Shown: in pieces, positions 9,129-17,839 of the stretch
How positions within the stretch are numbered: the first letter of the stretch is position 1
Layout: each line of letters opens with the position of its first letter
IMG/VR virus record: IMGVR_UViG_3300034418_005550
Reading direction: 5' to 3' (one strand)
DNA length: 20,000 bases
From: an uncultured virus (IMG/VR IMGVR_UViG_3300034418_005550)
Taxonomy: Duplodnaviria; Heunggongvirae; Uroviricota; Caudoviricetes
Translations under genes and position numbers: made by a program
Notes under the pieces: generated by a model
The model's input: the letters and a program-made list of their open reading frames with translations, nothing else
Database searches by the model: none
Told to the model about the DNA's origin: nothing

Positions 9129-10304
9129 TTATTCTTCTTCGTCTTTTCCTAAGATTTCATTAACTTTTTGAGCTACATTATTAAGACTTAAAAGTACTGC
9201 AAATGTCTTATGACTTAGAATTGAGCCTCTAGGAAAGCCAATTTTTTCTAAATCAGTTAATGTTCCGTCTGGTAAAGTAAATTGTCCCCAATCAGAAACT
9301 TTATTAATGTAATTGTTATCTAAACTAATTACATCATCTCCTAATAGTTCTAAATATTGCAATTGTAGTTTCCAACTACCACCTAATAAATGAACTTTTC
9401 TTCCTTTAAATGCCTCCCAAGGCACTTCTGTTCCACCATAAGAAGTTGGTACTGAAAATCCTAAAACATAATCTTCAGGTATTTTATCAATGCAATTATA
9501 TTTTGGAATTATTATCATATTTTCTGTATGAGGTGCAATATCATCTGCAAACTCCATAATTTGTTCAAATGTATAATATTCGCAATCATTTGCTCTACAT
9601 TGGTCTGAACTCATAACATCTCTAGTAGTTGCATATTTAGGTTTAAAATGTTTTACTGCAGTTAAATGTTTTTCGTGATTATAGTCTTTCCAATCATTAT
9701 CAATAAATTGTATTTCATGGTGCCATAAAAATCTTTCTGCAACTTCTGGCTTATTTACATATCGAATACTTTCAGTTGAAATTGAGCCACATAACCAACC
9801 AAATTCTTTTGCAATAAATGAACTTGGGTCTAAAGGTGTATAAGAATAAATTAAATCTATCGGTAAATTTCTAGCTACTCTTTTTCCTTTTGGTTTTTTA
9901 TTTATTCCTAAATCTAAAGGCTCTGCAATTTCTTTTAATAATGCGTCTAAATCATCATCATCAAATCCAGTTCCATTCAACCCACTATCTTGTGCAACTT
10001 CTTTTAATAATTCTGCTAAATCATTATCGTTATAACTTGCTAAGTCAGAAATTCTATTATCAGCTAAAACTATTTTTTTAGCAGTTTTATCATCTACATC
10101 TACATATTCAACATTAACTTCGTCATAACCTAACATCTCCATAGCCATAACTGTATGATTACCTGCTAAAATTTCATTATTATTTTTATTTACTACTACA
10201 GAACGAAACTGTCCTAGTTCTTTTATGCTATTTGCAATAGCTCCTACATCTCCTTGACGAGCATTTTTAGGATAATATTTTAGTTCACTTATTTTAATTT
10301 TCAT
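9129..10304 (-). CDS. ParB/Srx-like N-terminal domain fused to a putative TIM-barrel/TGT-like domain (DUF6610-like); candidate DNA-modification enzyme
   Basis: N-term NAR...ILAGNHT...LADNR is the ParBc signature seen fused to phage DNA-modifying enzymes. C-term FIDNDW...KYATTRD...IIPK...VHLLGGS...ISLDNN. Confidence 0.7.
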   Translation of the reverse strand: MKIKISELKYYPKNARQGDVGAIANSIKELGQFRSVVVNKNNNEILAGNHTVMAMEMLGYDEVNVEYVDVDDKTAKKIVLADNRISDLASYNDNDLAELLKEVAQDSGLNGTGFDDDDLDALLKEIAEPLDLGINKKPKGKRVARNLPIDLIYSYTPLDPSSFIAKEFGWLCGSISTESIRYVNKPEVAERFLWHHEIQFIDNDWKDYNHEKHLTAVKHFKPKYATTRDVMSSDQCRANDCEYYTFEQIMEFADDIAPHTENMIIIPKYNCIDKIPEDYVLGFSVPTSYGGTEVPWEAFKGRKVHLLGGSWKLQLQYLELLGDDVISLDNNYINKVSDWGQFTLPDGTLTDLEKIGFPRGSILSHKTFAVLLSLNNVAQKVNEILGKDEEE

Positions 10305-12772: not shown

Positions 12773-12815
12773 AAAAAAAATAAAGCCCATAATTATTACT
12801 AATTACAGGCTCTAT
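12773..12815 (-). terminator. Rho-independent terminator downstream of the que operon
   Basis: Minus strand ATAGAGCCTGTAATTA-GTAA-TAATTATGGGCTTTAT followed by poly-T. Confidence 0.8.
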
Positions 12816-12939
12816 TTAGTCCATGAAAGAAAACGAATAAATAATTTACTCAGAACAACAACCACATTGTCTTAAATATGTAAAGCATTCCTTTCTTTTA
12901 TTATTGTTTAACTAATTATATATTAATAAGAAGATAAAT

Positions 12940-13479
12940 TTATTTAACTAATGATAAAAATTCGTTTCTAGTTTCGCTTTCTTCTCTAAATACTCCACGC
13001 ATAACTGAAGTAATCATTTGTCCGTCAGTCTTAATTCCTCTTGCAACCATACATAGATGGGTTCCTATTCCATAAACTGCTACATCATATGTATTTACTA
13101 AATCTCTAACTTCATTTGCAATATCAGAAACTAGTTTTTCTTGTAGTTGTAATTTATGTGCGTGTTTATGTGCTATTCTAGCAAATTTAGATAATCCTAA
13201 AACTTTATCTCTAGTTATATAACCAATTGCTATTTCTGAACTAAACGGCATTAAATGATGTTCACATAAAGACCAAACTTTTATTCCTTTAACTATAACC
13301 ATTTGGTCTGCTTTTACTGCTTCAAAAGTTGTTCCAATTTTTCCTGCGTCATAATCTATAAACTCTTTCCAAAACTTTGCAACTCTTTTTGGTGTTTCTA
13401 ATAATCCATCTCTATTTGGGTCTTCTCCAATTTCAATTAATAATTCTTTTATTAATTTTTCTATTTTTTCTTGTTGCAT
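12940..13479 (-). CDS. folE: GTP cyclohydrolase I
   Basis: GL.ETPKRVA, SLCEHHLMPF, GLSKFAR, QLQE, HLCMVARG. Confidence 0.95.
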   Translation of the reverse strand: MQQEKIEKLIKELLIEIGEDPNRDGLLETPKRVAKFWKEFIDYDAGKIGTTFEAVKADQMVIVKGIKVWSLCEHHLMPFSSEIAIGYITRDKVLGLSKFARIAHKHAHKLQLQEKLVSDIANEVRDLVNTYDVAVYGIGTHLCMVARGIKTDGQMITSVMRGVFREESETRNEFLSLVK

Positions 13480-14213
13480 TATTTACCTCTTTCATCTGAC
13501 CATAACAAGACATGCAATCTTGGAGATAAGTTATATCCTCTTTTTAGTATTTCATCTGATAGTTGCACCATATTTATAAAATGGTATTTATTATTTTTGC
13601 CTTCAGGCATTATATAAACATTTTTTAAATCGTTTTCTTTTACTATTTCATCTACTTCAAATAAGTCATCTATTTCTTGTACTACAAATTTAAAAGCATA
13701 GTTTTGCGAATATTGCATATATTGTTCTAATACTTTTGGTTTAATAGTTTTTTCTTTTGGCATACCTGCATTTGATAATTTAGGACTAATATTAAAGTAA
13801 TCTATAACATCAAAAAACTCATCATTTTTAGCTAATATTGTTCCATTTGTTTCAATTTCAATAACAAATCCTTTTTGTCTTAGATTTTTCATTACATGAA
13901 ATAATTTACTTTGTTGGCTCATTGGTTCGCCACCAGTAAAAACAATATGACTTCCAAAAGGTAAATTAAGGCTCATTATTTGTCCTACTACTTGCTCAAC
14001 TGTAAAGCCAATAGTTTCTTTTTTAGGGTCATACTTAACTCCATTTTTACCTTTCCAGTCCCAAGTGTATGGAGTATCGCACCAATCACAAGTTAAATTG
14101 CAACCACTAACACGAATAAATGCACTAATCTTTCCAATAGTTTGCCCCTCGCCTTGAAATGTAGGTCCAAAAATTTCATTTATTCTAATTAAAGGTAAAG
14201 TTTTAGTATTCAT
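13479..14213 (-). CDS. queE: 7-carboxy-7-deazaguanine synthase (radical SAM)
   Basis: EIFGPTFQGEG, GCNLTCDWCDT, TGGEP, IETNGT, ISPKL, SPRLH. Start ATG 14213, or TTG 14225. Confidence 0.95.
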   Translation of the reverse strand: MNTKTLPLIRINEIFGPTFQGEGQTIGKISAFIRVSGCNLTCDWCDTPYTWDWKGKNGVKYDPKKETIGFTVEQVVGQIMSLNLPFGSHIVFTGGEPMSQQSKLFHVMKNLRQKGFVIEIETNGTILAKNDEFFDVIDYFNISPKLSNAGMPKEKTIKPKVLEQYMQYSQNYAFKFVVQEIDDLFEVDEIVKENDLKNVYIMPEGKNNKYHFINMVQLSDEILKRGYNLSPRLHVLLWSDERGK

Positions 14214-14580
14214 AATAACTTGCAATAGTTTTATCAGTTTCTTTTACACTTACTTTATTTAAAATATCTTTTTCTCCATATATTTCAATAAACATTGCTT
14301 CAAATTCTTTATAAAAATGTTTAGCCATTTTTTCAGCAGTAGGATTAAAGTTTAAAACATCGTTTAAATGCCTATGGTCTAATTTATTATCTATATATTC
14401 TTTAATAAAATTTAATTCTCCATAGTCAATTATGAAACCAACTTCATCTAATCTCATAGATATTAACTCAACAATTACTACATAATTATGTCCATGCAAC
14501 CTAGCACATTGGTGTTCTTTTGGTAAATTAAGTAATTGATGACTTGCAGAAAAAGTAAATTCTTTAGCTATTGAGTACAT
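14203..14580 (-). CDS. queD: 6-carboxy-5,6,7,8-tetrahydropterin synthase
   Basis: FSASHQL, CARLHGHNY, LDHRHLND, PTAE, ET motifs. Confidence 0.95.
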   Translation of the reverse strand: MYSIAKEFTFSASHQLLNLPKEHQCARLHGHNYVVIVELISMRLDEVGFIIDYGELNFIKEYIDNKLDHRHLNDVLNFNPTAEKMAKHFYKEFEAMFIEIYGEKDILNKVSVKETDKTIASYYEY

Positions 14581-14668: not shown

Positions 14669-15451
14669 CTACTTATTCTCTTGAAATTCTTGTTGTAATT
14701 TAAGAGCGTTTTCTAAGACTTCGTCCCAACCTCCTACATACTCAACTGGGTCTTGTGTTCCTAATTGCCAAAAAGCTAATATTCGTTCAACATCAGAGCC
14801 AGTTTTTCCACTAGCTCTTCCTTTTTCATCAGGTGCATAACTTGTATTAGTATTTTTTAGAACTGTATTAAAGTCTAAATTTAACTTAACGCAGTTTGCG
14901 TCAGTATCTTGCAATATAGTAAATTTATCTCCATTTAAGTAAGGAAGTTTTAAACTTACTAAATCACTATCCCAATTGCCTACTTTAAAAGCATTCATTG
15001 CCTCTACATAAAATTCAGGTCTGCAATCAGGATAAATTGCGTGGTCGCCACTATGAACTCCAAGTCCAATATCTACTTGGCAATTTTCTTTTGTTGCTAT
15101 TGATAATGCATAACCTGCAATCATAGAAAAGAAAATCATATTTCTATTTGGAACTACTGTAAGTTTCATATTTTCTTGCTCATAAAAGCCCTCTGGCACA
15201 TCAGTATCGCTACTAACTAATGCAGAGTTATATAAATTACCTATTTGAGATACATCTAATACTGTATGTTCTACTTCATAGCCATTTTCTTTTAAATAAG
15301 CTAAATTATCAGATAATCTTTCTAATTCAAGTTTATGTTTTTGTCCATAATCAAAACTTAATGCAGAAACTTTATAATCATTTGCTAAAAAATTAATTAA
15401 AAGTCCTGTACTATCCATGCCTCCACTAAGGCTTAATACTGCTCTTTTCAT
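14669..15451 (-). CDS. queC: 7-cyano-7-deazaguanine (preQ0) synthase
   Basis: PP-loop SLSGGMDS, SFDYGQKH, VVPNRN, HSGDHAIYPDCRPEF. The C-terminal Zn cysteines are absent. Confidence 0.92.
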   Translation of the reverse strand: MKRAVLSLSGGMDSTGLLINFLANDYKVSALSFDYGQKHKLELERLSDNLAYLKENGYEVEHTVLDVSQIGNLYNSALVSSDTDVPEGFYEQENMKLTVVPNRNMIFFSMIAGYALSIATKENCQVDIGLGVHSGDHAIYPDCRPEFYVEAMNAFKVGNWDSDLVSLKLPYLNGDKFTILQDTDANCVKLNLDFNTVLKNTNTSYAPDEKGRASGKTGSDVERILAFWQLGTQDPVEYVGGWDEVLENALKLQQEFQENK

Positions 15452-15846
15452 TATTTCTCCAAATATCCTACTGAAGTAGTTTCAATTCCACCTCTTTTAG
15501 ATTGTTTATTAGTTACTTTTATCCATTTAGGCTCTAAAGTATCAAATAATTTTTGTGCAATATCACTTGCTAATGCCTCGCAAAAATGTCCTACTTCTCT
15601 AAATGTCCATAAATATAGCTTTAATGATTTACTTTCAATACATAATTCATCAGGCTGATATTCAATAGTTAATTCTCCAAAGTCAGGTTGTCCTGTCATT
15701 GGACATAAACTTGTCAATTCATCAGTCCAAAATTTTACTGTTTGAGTATTTTTTGGTGCAGGAAAAGTTTCAAGTTGGTCTAATGGATTTCTTGTCTTTT
15801 TTCCTAATATAGTTAGGTCTTTAGTATATTCTGGCTCATGTGCCAT
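15451..15846 (-). CDS. queF: NADPH-dependent preQ0 reductase (unimodular QueF)
   Basis: Catalytic CPMTGQPD, QueF motif ESKSLKLY, RGG; FCE in place of the usual FHE. Confidence 0.9.
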   Translation of the reverse strand: MAHEPEYTKDLTILGKKTRNPLDQLETFPAPKNTQTVKFWTDELTSLCPMTGQPDFGELTIEYQPDELCIESKSLKLYLWTFREVGHFCEALASDIAQKLFDTLEPKWIKVTNKQSKRGGIETTSVGYLEK

Positions 15847-15851
15847 TTTGT

Positions 15852-15886
15852 CCTCCTAGTTTTGTTTAAGGTTTTCTAGTACTTGA
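15852..15886 (-). promoter_or_regulatory. preQ1-I riboswitch-like element overlapping the queF SD
   Basis: UCAAG-UACUAGAAAAC-CUUAA-ACAAAACUAG-GAGG: a short P1, loop CUAG able to pair with tail CUAG, A-rich tail; immediately 5' of queF. Confidence 0.55.
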
Positions 15887-15917: not shown

Positions 15918-15945
15918 ATTATATAATCTGTTCTCGCTATAACAA
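15918..15945 (-). promoter_or_regulatory. Promoter of the que operon
   Basis: TTGTTA-16bp-TATAAT; same -35 hexamer as at 12756-12761 and 19304-19309. Confidence 0.65.
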
Positions 15946-15989: not shown

Positions 15990-15995
15990 ATAGGT

Positions 15996-16826
15996 TTATT
16001 ATATTTTTTATAAGGTTATGGTTAGCCTTAAAAAATAGCAACCGAGTAGAGCGAGAGCTAACCCAAGTAAAATTGGTAGGTAAGAAATTAGAAATTCAAC
16101 CTTGATGAAGACTTAAACAGAGAGCTTTTGTGAGCATAAACTAGTACCTGAAAATGAAACTTGGGGAGGTAATTAGCCCACTTGTTAAGAAGTAAAGCAA
16201 GAAGTAAGAAGTAAGGTAGGCGTATTGACTACAGGATTGAGAATTTCCATTAAAAAATAATTTAAAGTAGGATTGGTATAAACTTAACTAGCCAAAAATC
16301 TAGAGTATGCTCTCACAAAAGCTCTTTGTAACTGAGTTCTTATGGATATGAGTAGTTGTTTGGCAAGTAGTTCAGGAATGTACCTGCCTTTAGTTGAAAT
16401 ACTTTAGGGCTACGCTATAAAGCATATATTGATTCGAAGCAATATGAACTACTTAAAACTTATAAACCATTTAGTAACCAATCCTGAAATACGGCATGTC
16501 GAAAAATGTTAGATAAGTAATTTAAGTAAGCAAACAGATACGCTCATATCCGTAAGGACTTAGTTAATTTGAGAGATTAAAGATATAGGTTGTGAAGGTA
16601 ACTTCTCATTTGGGAAGCTTCATCTCAGGTGGTCGTAGCGTAATGCACGAGCCATATACTGAAAGGTATATAAGCCTGAAGGAATAACTTGCAGTACAAT
16701 ATCCTTTTAGGTTAGTTGTGGAGTGTGGTGGGTTGTTAATTTAATCAAAGTGGTTTTGACAAATTACTTTGAACTTTAACTGTAAGCAAGATTGTCATTA
16801 TTTAGCCTGTATCTTTAATCTCTTAA
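15996..16826 (+). ncRNA. Large structured ncRNA, family unassigned (GOLLD/ROOL size class); may extend to 16949
   Basis: No ORF of 60 aa or more in the track. Three long closing helices with G-U pairs, multiple GNRA hairpins, inter-domain complementarities, upstream -10 box and downstream terminator. Confidence 0.85.
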
Positions 16827-16862
16827 TTTAGATTTATAACTCCCAATAGGGTAGAATAGATG

Positions 16863-16949
16863 ATATATTCACTGATAACTCCGTGATTATTATCTAACAT
16901 ACGAGAAGACTTTAAGGACTGGCAACAGTCTTTAAGGTCTTCTTTTTTT
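16863..16949 (+). ncRNA. Putative antisense sRNA, or 3' tail of the large ncRNA
   Basis: Possible -10 TAGAAT (16852-16857); hairpin UCAC/GUGA exposing anti-SD AACUCC; UUAUUAUCUAACAUAC complementary to three mRNA leaders; terminator. Confidence 0.55.
16904..16949 (+). terminator. Rho-independent terminator of the ncRNA locus
   Basis: 18-bp stem AGAAGACTTTAAGGACTG-GCAA-CAGTCTTTAAGGTCTTCT (two G-U) followed by a T-run on the plus strand. Confidence 0.9.
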
Positions 16950-17439
16950 ACATTGGTGTAGGTTTTACAATATATCTTTCTTGAGTTTTAGGTAATGGTG
17001 CTAATTTTTTAGTGATTATATTCCAATAAGTAAAAGGTAAGCCAGTTTTTGATATTCCATGCCACCTGTAGCCTAATTTTTCATAAAATTTAATACTTGG
17101 TTTATTTGCAAAAAACCTTAATAACATTACATAATTTTCTTTCATATCTTCTTCTAACATTTTCATCATTTCTGCACCAATATTTTTACCTCTATATTGT
17201 TCTAATACGAAAAAATGTCTTAAAGTACAATGTCTTGGTTCTCTTTTTGTATAAGAAATAAACATAAAACCTTTATCTTCTAAGCTAAAAACTTTAGAAC
17301 TTTCTTTATCCCATTGTTTTTCAACTCGCCAATCATACAAAGCATTTTTTAAATGACTTTTAGAACTTAAACTACCACCTTTTGTATGTTCTATTTCTTT
17401 TAATAATTTTTCCATTTCTTTTTCAGTTTTTATTATCAT
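16948..17439 (-). CDS. GNAT-family acetyltransferase
   Basis: FFVLEQYRGKNIGAEMM (motif A) and ANKPSIKFYEKLGY (motif B). Start moved to ATG 17439. Confidence 0.85.
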   Translation of the reverse strand: MIIKTEKEMEKLLKEIEHTKGGSLSSKSHLKNALYDWRVEKQWDKESSKVFSLEDKGFMFISYTKREPRHCTLRHFFVLEQYRGKNIGAEMMKMLEEDMKENYVMLLRFFANKPSIKFYEKLGYRWHGISKTGLPFTYWNIITKKLAPLPKTQERYIVKPTPM

Positions 17440-17839
17440 AGTCCCAACACTTTCTACTTGCGTTCCAATGGTGTAAGCCGTCATTAATCATTAACCATTT
17501 AGCTACTTTTGTAGCTACTATTTTATTAAATGGAGTAGTTGTTATTTTTAATTTAGGTTTTAACCAAGCCCAAGTTTTATCATTAAATTGAAATAATCCT
17601 CTATCAGTTGTACCATTTTTATTGTAATTTATAGCGTTTTCTCTGCCAGAACTTTCACAATAAATAATTAGTAAAGGTATTAAAGCTTTATCTAAACCAA
17701 ATTCATCAACTATTAATTCAATATGTTCTTCTACTGCACTAACTTTATATTGTATTTCTCTGCATTCAATATATTCATTTAAAGTATCAGGAGTTAAAAA
17801 AGGGTAAGGTATAGCACAAGCGATTATTAACTCTAACAT
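17423..17839 (-). CDS. Lytic transglycosylase (SLT/lysozyme-like)
   Basis: IIYCESSG...NKNGTTDRGLFQFN..TW...W; hydrophobic N-terminus. Confidence 0.8.
   Translation of the reverse strand: MLELIIACAIPYPFLTPDTLNEYIECREIQYKVSAVEEHIELIVDEFGLDKALIPLLIIYCESSGRENAINYNKNGTTDRGLFQFNDKTWAWLKPKLKITTTPFNKIVATKVAKWLMINDGLHHWNASRKCWDYDNKN

Follow-up and report, generated by a model that had tools for sequence, protein, structure and literature searches.

Introduction

Class I preQ1 riboswitches are divided into three types, a scheme that was reportedly defined by McCown in 2014. Type I is described as having a two-ligand pocket, with UC preceding the 3' strand of P1 and UU on top of its 5' strand. The defining feature of type II is an AC immediately ahead of the P1 3' strand, and type III features a pyrimidine-rich loop with UU and pairs the full Shine-Dalgarno (SD) sequence (AAGG) within P2 (PMC11625349). 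According to the same source, the ligand is contacted by the floor G-C pair, U6, the specificity C and an adenine of L3, and the burial of two SD bases is the known translational mode of types I and II (PMC11625349).

Like the candidate presented here, the riboswitches so far reported from phages are metabolite-sensing RNAs, e.g., c-di-GMP-I riboswitches in C. difficile prophages and glutamine aptamers in cyanophages and Melnitz-like phages (PMC5473149, PMC9004378). They belong to other aptamer classes, and in the available text of these reports none is described as controlling the phage's own DNA-modification pathway. According to a survey of riboswitch distribution, from which truncated preQ1-I sequences were excluded, phages rarely use known metabolite-binding riboswitches and might use undiscovered forms (PMC5473149). 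A search of largely open-access literature, mostly at the level of titles and abstract openings, returned no paper on a phage preQ1 riboswitch or on a natural class I variant with a short P1.

The locus studied belongs to a 65.9-kb record of an uncultured virus (IMGVR_UViG_3300034418_005550, Caudoviricetes) encoding terminase, portal and Mu F genes, of which one stretch of 20,000 nucleotides (the window) was analyzed. An element at 15852-15886 (minus strand) overlaps the ribosome-binding site of queF, whose start codon is the AUG at 15846. It is regarded, with moderate confidence, as a miniature preQ1 riboswitch of class I, type II, i.e., a ligand-folded translational OFF switch on a phage preQ1 pathway.

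The que Operon and Its Genomic Context

The first-pass annotation, made from the letters alone, had placed a preQ1-I-like pseudoknot at the head of a phage deazaguanine operon. Pfam and NCBIfam assignments agree with this placement, as the element precedes queF, the first gene of queF-C-D-E-folE, which together constitute a preQ1 pathway. The features of this region are the following, all on the minus strand.

15918..15945 (-): candidate sigma70-like promoter TTGTTA-16-TATAAT with 10/12 consensus bases, leaving the que operon a leader of about 65 nt
15451..15846 (-): queF, unimodular preQ1 synthase (PF14489), exceeding the preQ1-synthase equivalog cut-off (TIGR03139, 117 bits; cut-off 86.9)
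14669..15451 (-): queC (PF06508), its start overlapped by the queF stop
14203..14580 (-): queD (PF01242; TIGR03367 above cut-off)
13479..14225 (-): queE-like radical SAM enzyme (PF04055), the best NCBIfam matches being QueE models below their cut-offs
12940..13479 (-): folE, GTP cyclohydrolase I (PF01227; TIGR00063 above cut-off)
12778..12817 (-): candidate intrinsic terminator at the operon end, 18-pair stem plus U run
9129..10304 (-): ParB-like/DUF6610 fusion (PF20314, E 7.7e-38)

Promoter-like matches are equally common in shuffled sequences (24 vs. 26.2), and both hexamers of the que promoter candidate are kept in the relative L003. Between the motif and queF no terminator was called. Four of 23 listed RNA runs were compared with the sequence. 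Contigs of three metatranscriptomes, all from freshwater, together span most of the que operon in pieces, with strand, level and ends not being readable and DNA possibly present. Contig ends at 15870/15871 in two of the metatranscriptome runs were dismissed as evidence, as they carried adapter sequence. Divergent from the operon, a plus-strand region of about 950 nt (15990-16950) holds no open reading frame of at least 55 aa, is strongly structured (z -8.4), is ended by a 19-pair terminator and gave no Rfam match. By blastn, it is absent from L003 and the other non-identical relatives and is therefore likely a separate insert.

We infer that the pathway is used for DNA modification, since DUF6610 has been equated with the DNA transglycosylase DpdA4 in a study which also showed a phage QueF to make preQ1 (bioRxiv 2023.04.13.536721). 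The tRNA-guanine transglycosylase family (TGT, PF01702) had no match in the genome. Judged by its domains, the ParB-like/DUF6610 protein is likely a transglycosylase of the DpdA4 type, which would insert preQ1 into phage DNA. The DpdA-like gp3 of Mycobacterium phage Funsized found no counterpart in the genome by tblastn. The fusion itself (window 9129-10304; L006:3607-4872; L167:1-1299) is present in bacterial phages and shares 36% identity over its full length with gp1 of Mycobacterium phages Funsized, Knocker and Rinkes. In Funsized, which also carries an annotated DpdA, gp1 lies directly before queF. DpdA4 was previously described as specific to archaeal viruses (bioRxiv 2023.04.13.536721).

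Further observations concern the surroundings of the operon and the base composition of the genome. A GNAT acetyltransferase gene (16948-17484, minus strand) is found near the motif in the window and in L003 and directly upstream of it in L004, with similar genes in L044 and L045; speculatively, its product might acylate the amine of preQ1 within DNA. Some four-base palindromes are strongly depleted genome-wide (observed/expected: ACGT 1/64, CCGG 1/13, GCGC 11/64, GATC 66/131), and the CpG ratio of the whole genome is 0.5. The palindrome depletion suggests restriction-site avoidance alongside base modification.

Architecture of the Leader Element

On the minus strand, positions 15886-15844 read UCAAG UACUAGAAAAC CUUAA ACAAAACUAG GAGG ACAAA AUG, exactly as first annotated. 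The parts of the predicted pseudoknot, with their state among the seven distinct versions known (see below), are as follows.

15882..15886 (-): P1 5' strand, with the core AAG (15884-15882) invariant in 7/7 versions and containing G15882, the predicted pocket-floor G
15880..15881 (-): L1, U15881 plus A15880; the U is invariant in 7/7 versions and is the predicted counterpart of the ligand-reading U6, a role assigned by analogy with PMC11625349
15876..15879 (-): P2 5' strand, loop CUAG, its partner being 15859-15856 (28/28 cells paired)
15871..15875 (-): L2, AAAAC, with AAC invariant in 7/7 versions and the terminal AC being the type II signature; its last base, C15871, is the predicted specificity base
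15868..15870 (-): P1 3' strand, CUU, invariant in 7/7 versions
15860..15867 (-): L3, A-rich, AAACAAAA in the window and 5 nt long in the commonest versions
15856..15859 (-): P2 3' strand, CUAG, its final two bases being the first two of the SD
15852..15857 (-): Shine-Dalgarno sequence AGGAGG, 5 nt ahead of the queF AUG

The weakness of P1 that was noted at the outset is real, as AAG/CUU gives three contiguous pairs, followed by a C-A mismatch and a U-A pair. The next pair outward from the core forms in only three of the seven versions (A-U twice, U-A once).

Conservation in Relatives

QueF searches yielded seven close loci among 17 in the viral set (81-100% identity) and two among 80 in metagenomes (92-93%). 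The metagenome search spanned 18 of 64 parts, and more relatives therefore probably exist. A lack of loop-and-tail conservation in front of queF homologs had been named beforehand as an argument against a riboswitch; the motif was found directly before the queF start in 9/9 close loci and, in addition, in a contig fragment (L035) representing a tenth relative. As L001 and L002 are the same as the window sequence, seven distinct versions result. Their consensus, AAG U(1-3 nt) C[U/A]AG NNAAC CUU (5-9 nt, A-rich) CU[A/U]G, spans 26-30 nt overall. The motif occurs in four upstream contexts, i.e., an own promoter-bearing leader (window, L003), a GNAT-type gene (L004 by Pfam, with L044 and L045 being similar), a cytosine-methylase-like gene (L005) and a DUF6610 gene, which sits directly upstream of motif and queF in L006 and L007.

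In the motif core upstream of the tail, 13 of 17 columns are invariant, as compared to two among the 27 four-fold-degenerate queF sites (p 3.7e-6 in a Fisher test, the 17 columns having been picked after the motif had been seen). None of the 12 flanking columns is invariant, and pairwise identity at the four-fold, neutral sites amounts to 40-81%. On this comparison of sequences, the element is under selection.

A descriptor drawn up post hoc (G-U, C..G loop word, ACC, P1 of at least 3 bp, A-rich tail, complementary 4-mer) matched 0 times in 300 dinucleotide shuffles of the window and once in the 65.9-kb genome, namely at the queF leader, and had no match in 88 distant QueF loci (10 viral, 78 metagenomic). 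The motif is single in the genome and absent from its other AGGAGG contexts. A model built from the seven versions gave one weak match (L163) among 68 other loci and one weak second match in the genome, which falls within a coding region. Pattern scans of viral contigs (14, 12, 28, 16 and 20 loci) returned the fragment L035/L185 as the only new queF-linked case. The remaining viral pattern matches were taken as chance or unrelated, since reading of their translations showed no QueF-like ORF. For the QueF proteins P0006-P0009 (71-73% identity), a search for their DNA gave no new close locus. Apart from the que genes, nine of 28 pattern matches (L136, L139, L144, L147, L148, L153, L157, L160 and L161) share a conserved leader, GGACG..UAUAGUCGACGGCCUAGAGACC...AAAACUAGGAG, before one conserved phage gene, which is possibly structured and unrelated to que.

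Pairing and Pocket Features

P2 is formed by the loop CUAG and the tail CUAG, or by CAAG and CUUG in L006/L007, the latter being the one two-sided change. This change preserves complementarity and breaks the direct repeat, and therefore favors pairing over a repeated binding word. In a viral scan in which the two middle P2 bases were left free (16 loci), complementarity was found in 7/7 matches before queF and in 1/9 elsewhere; as the seven queF-linked matches comprise two sequence types only, they represent one compensatory event in one lineage. This single change, seen at the sequence level, supports P2. In the whole-structure control, 16 of 500 shuffles scored as high or higher, which is not significant by the tool's calibration. 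Covariation is uninformative for P1, since its three core pairs never vary.

The seven versions differ from 12 RF00522-matched comparators, about half of which score under the gathering threshold, in two linked respects, the length of P1 and that of the tail. P1 measures 3, 6, 4, 3, 4, 3 and 3 bp in the phage versions (the 6 bp belonging to L003) and 5-6 bp in 12/12 comparators, with hairpin energies of +2.5 to -1.2 vs. -1.8 to -8.0 kcal/mol. From the P1 C to the P2 3' strand, 8-12 nt were counted vs. 13-15 in the comparators. The longest tails occur in the window and L003, where P1 spans five or six positions (with one mismatch in the window).

At the sequence level, the floor pair G15882, C15870 and the following U15881 are invariant in 7/7 versions, and the same holds for all pocket nucleotides named in the available text of PMC11625349. 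AC stands immediately 5' of the P1 3' strand, as in type II. Where type I features UC and UU, the phage versions show AC and U-A, U-G or U-A-A-U; the type III pattern is likewise missing, the loop being purine-rich and only AG of the SD lying within P2. An A-rich L3 and a tail-to-loop P2, the latter backed by one event, agree with an H-type pseudoknot, and the location, a leader of a queuosine-precursor synthesis gene over the SD of queF, is that of a preQ1 riboswitch.

Comparison With Known Elements

With the type II elements of family RF00522, e.g., the B. subtilis queC and T. tengcongensis aptamers (PMC11625349), the phage element has in common the H-type pseudoknot layout, the floor G-C pair, the following U, the AC, an A-rich L3, a tail pairing to the loop, the first two SD bases within P2 and the position before a que gene. 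It differs from them by a P1 of three base pairs, AAG/CUU (3-6 across versions), instead of 5-6, by a distance of 8-12 nt instead of 13-15 between P1 C and tail, by a score below the Rfam threshold and by a pathway likely serving DNA rather than tRNA modification. The commonest phage form comprises 26 nt, as compared to the 34-mer C. antarcticum aptamer (PMC10018353).

The Rfam PreQ1 model, which the first-pass annotation had proposed as a check, gave no match at E<=10 over the whole window and none in the 65.9-kb genome. On a 161-nt stretch, RF00522 reached 13.3 bits (E 1.9), short of its gathering threshold of 39 bits. Nor did any other Rfam family match the window significantly. A match to the hsp17 thermometer (19.1 bits vs. 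45, in the short stretch) was rejected, as it reflects only CCUU plus SD. Since both the Rfam threshold and the usual P1 length are missed, the element has to be addressed as a preQ1-I-like variant and not as a standard member. Of the two options initially offered, a variant or a decaying aptamer, the former fits better, because only the outer P1 and the tail have suffered losses, with no variation at the pocket positions; the idea of decay loses ground accordingly.

A pattern derived from the phage motif matched two stretches in the GTDB genome collection. The first (L169; Clostridia MAG, G001) holds an element with a 5-bp P1 and the loop UACUAGACGAC before queT, scoring 24.6 bits with RF00522. 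Genes of the queT class are known to be under preQ1 riboswitch control. The L169 loop, UACUAG-ACGAC, closely resembles the phage loops UACUAG-ACAAC (L004, L044, L045) and UACUAG-AAAAC (window), and its tail, AAAACUAG, likewise runs into the SD. Unlike the phage motif, it features a full 5-bp P1 (AAUGG/CCAUU), a 9-nt L3 and a transporter gene downstream. The second stretch (L163:780-815; Cryomorphaceae MAG), which overlies the SD of a YbjQ gene and combines the ACAAC loop with just two P1 pairs, scored 23.9 bits with the seven-version model and is probably a chance match or else a further variant.

A QueC search matched 265 records. Among five annotated que-bearing phages (Dp-1, Flasso, immuto_3-5A, BSTP5 and Funsized), RF00522 gave one match near que genes. 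It lies in the cultured Bacillus phage Flasso (MZ357961.1, 67691-67735; L168:1500-1545), is unannotated and reached 34.1 bits (E 1.6e-6), i.e., below the cut-off. Like the queF motif, it is phage-borne, overlaps an SD and heads a que cluster (queC-queD-queE-folE-queF, with a tgt-annotated gene further on). It differs in its full, G-C-rich 5-bp P1, its UUCG-type loop, GC instead of AC/UC before the P1 3' strand, and its first gene, which encodes a 102-aa protein without Pfam match directly before queC-D-E-folE. On sequence grounds, the occurrence of preQ1-I-like leaders in phage que clusters is, as Flasso shows, not tied to the queF-motif lineage. Dp-1, BSTP5 and Funsized gave no RF00522 match, and Flavobacterium phage immuto_3-5A gave only 14.5 bits, away from its que genes. 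The queC leader of immuto_3-5A (L219:8940-8975), where RF00522 found no match, contains a hairpin loop GCC complementary to a downstream GGC, which is compatible with an H-type pseudoknot. Two 'Listeria phage' records resembling the canonical aptamer (one tested, 41 bits) were not counted as phage cases; they are short and unannotated, and the one fetched is flagged UNVERIFIED_ORG.

Proposed Mechanism and Alternative Explanations

As an OFF switch, the element would work as follows. Without ligand, the 3-bp P1 would be unfolded and the SD usable, because the sole competing hairpin, CCUU/GAGG (-1.7 kcal/mol in the window, about -2 to -3 where it is the sole helix), is far weaker than SD:anti-SD pairing (-8.6 kcal/mol). 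Once available, preQ1 would form a base pair with C15871 and lie on top of the floor pair G15882-C15870, with U15881 and an adenine of L3 recognizing it. Its binding would thereby fix P1 and P2 as an H-type pseudoknot in which the first two SD bases (AG) are buried, and this pseudoknot, lying within the ribosome footprint, would block initiation at queF; queC would probably also be lowered via the overlapping stop and start. The likely purpose would be feedback on the preQ1 pool that the DpdA4-type enzyme would use for DNA modification. In L006/L007, 5 nt separate P2 from the SD that follows it; by analogy, this spacing would agree with the report that such pseudoknots still repress at distances of up to 10 nt (PMC10018353).

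An unlikely, though still the least improbable, alternative is a riboswitch-derived operator, with QueF, DpdA4 or some other phage protein binding the leader and repressing queF and the naked RNA showing no preQ1 binding. Translational operators are common in phages, and strong sequence conservation combined with a very unstable P1 would fit a protein-recognized sequence. Nevertheless, the invariant positions are the ligand contacts of solved class I aptamers, and the bacterial element with a near-identical loop precedes a transporter gene, queT.

Marginally less probable still is that a captured riboswitch has persisted as a functionless relic, or that a site acting at the DNA level or a strong ribosome-binding context looks like a riboswitch by chance. 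The failure to reach the Rfam threshold speaks for such a relic, as does the unremarkable single-sequence folding of the leader (z 0.02), in which P1 is not predicted, and sharing by descent is possible among close relatives. Against it, adjacent neutral sites have diverged far more while the motif stayed fixed across four upstream contexts, the step from CUAG/CUAG to CAAG/CUUG kept complementarity at the expense of the direct repeat, and the motif is found once in the genome instead of recurring in its other AGGAGG contexts.

The last alternative retains the pseudoknot with another wiring, in which CCUU masks the SD without ligand and the ligand, possibly preQ0 or another 7-deazaguanine, frees it by drawing CCUU into P1 and the pocket, giving an ON switch. 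CUU plus C15871 can indeed pair alternatively with the SD (CCUU/GAGG), and does so in 27/28 cells, which would be compatible with either direction of switching. In the nearest-neighbor model without ligand, P1 is almost never formed (ensemble probability of the floor G-C pair 0.00-0.13), and the partition function places CC on the SD side in all seven versions (0.42-0.98). Moreover, the regulated gene, queF, consumes preQ0, and complexes of type II aptamers are known for both preQ0 and preQ1 (PMC11625349). The strand swap of CCUU could even give a preQ0-activated ON switch. On the other side, CCUU/GAGG shows no two-sided change, was scored as high in 500/500 shuffles and follows automatically from a conserved ACCUU beside a GGAGG SD; in L006 the SD is shifted and unmasked in the predicted fold, and the bound pseudoknot would still be inside the ribosome footprint. 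With a masking hairpin this weak relative to the SD pairing, the ON switch is kept as a rival and is the least probable of the three.

Significance for Phage Biology

Phage control of its own modified-base synthesis by a riboswitch is of a rarely reported kind. The queF element would be an undiscovered form of the sort envisaged for phages, as it is invisible at the Rfam threshold and conserved at the ligand-contact positions. If preQ1 is bound, the size limit of the preQ1-I fold falls by about 8 nt, from 34 to 26, and P1 and L3 are shown to be able to shrink together. The full reading, i.e., a 26-nt aptamer with a 3-bp P1 that is folded only when ligand-bound and meters the 7-deazaguanine which the phage writes into its DNA, is put forward tentatively, at slightly less than even chances. 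Taken together with Flasso, and at the same tentative level, it would point to a recurring and so far missed control of phage DNA hypermodification. Binding of preQ1 would also offer an initial entry point to phage regulation of the 7-deazaguanine supply for DNA modification.
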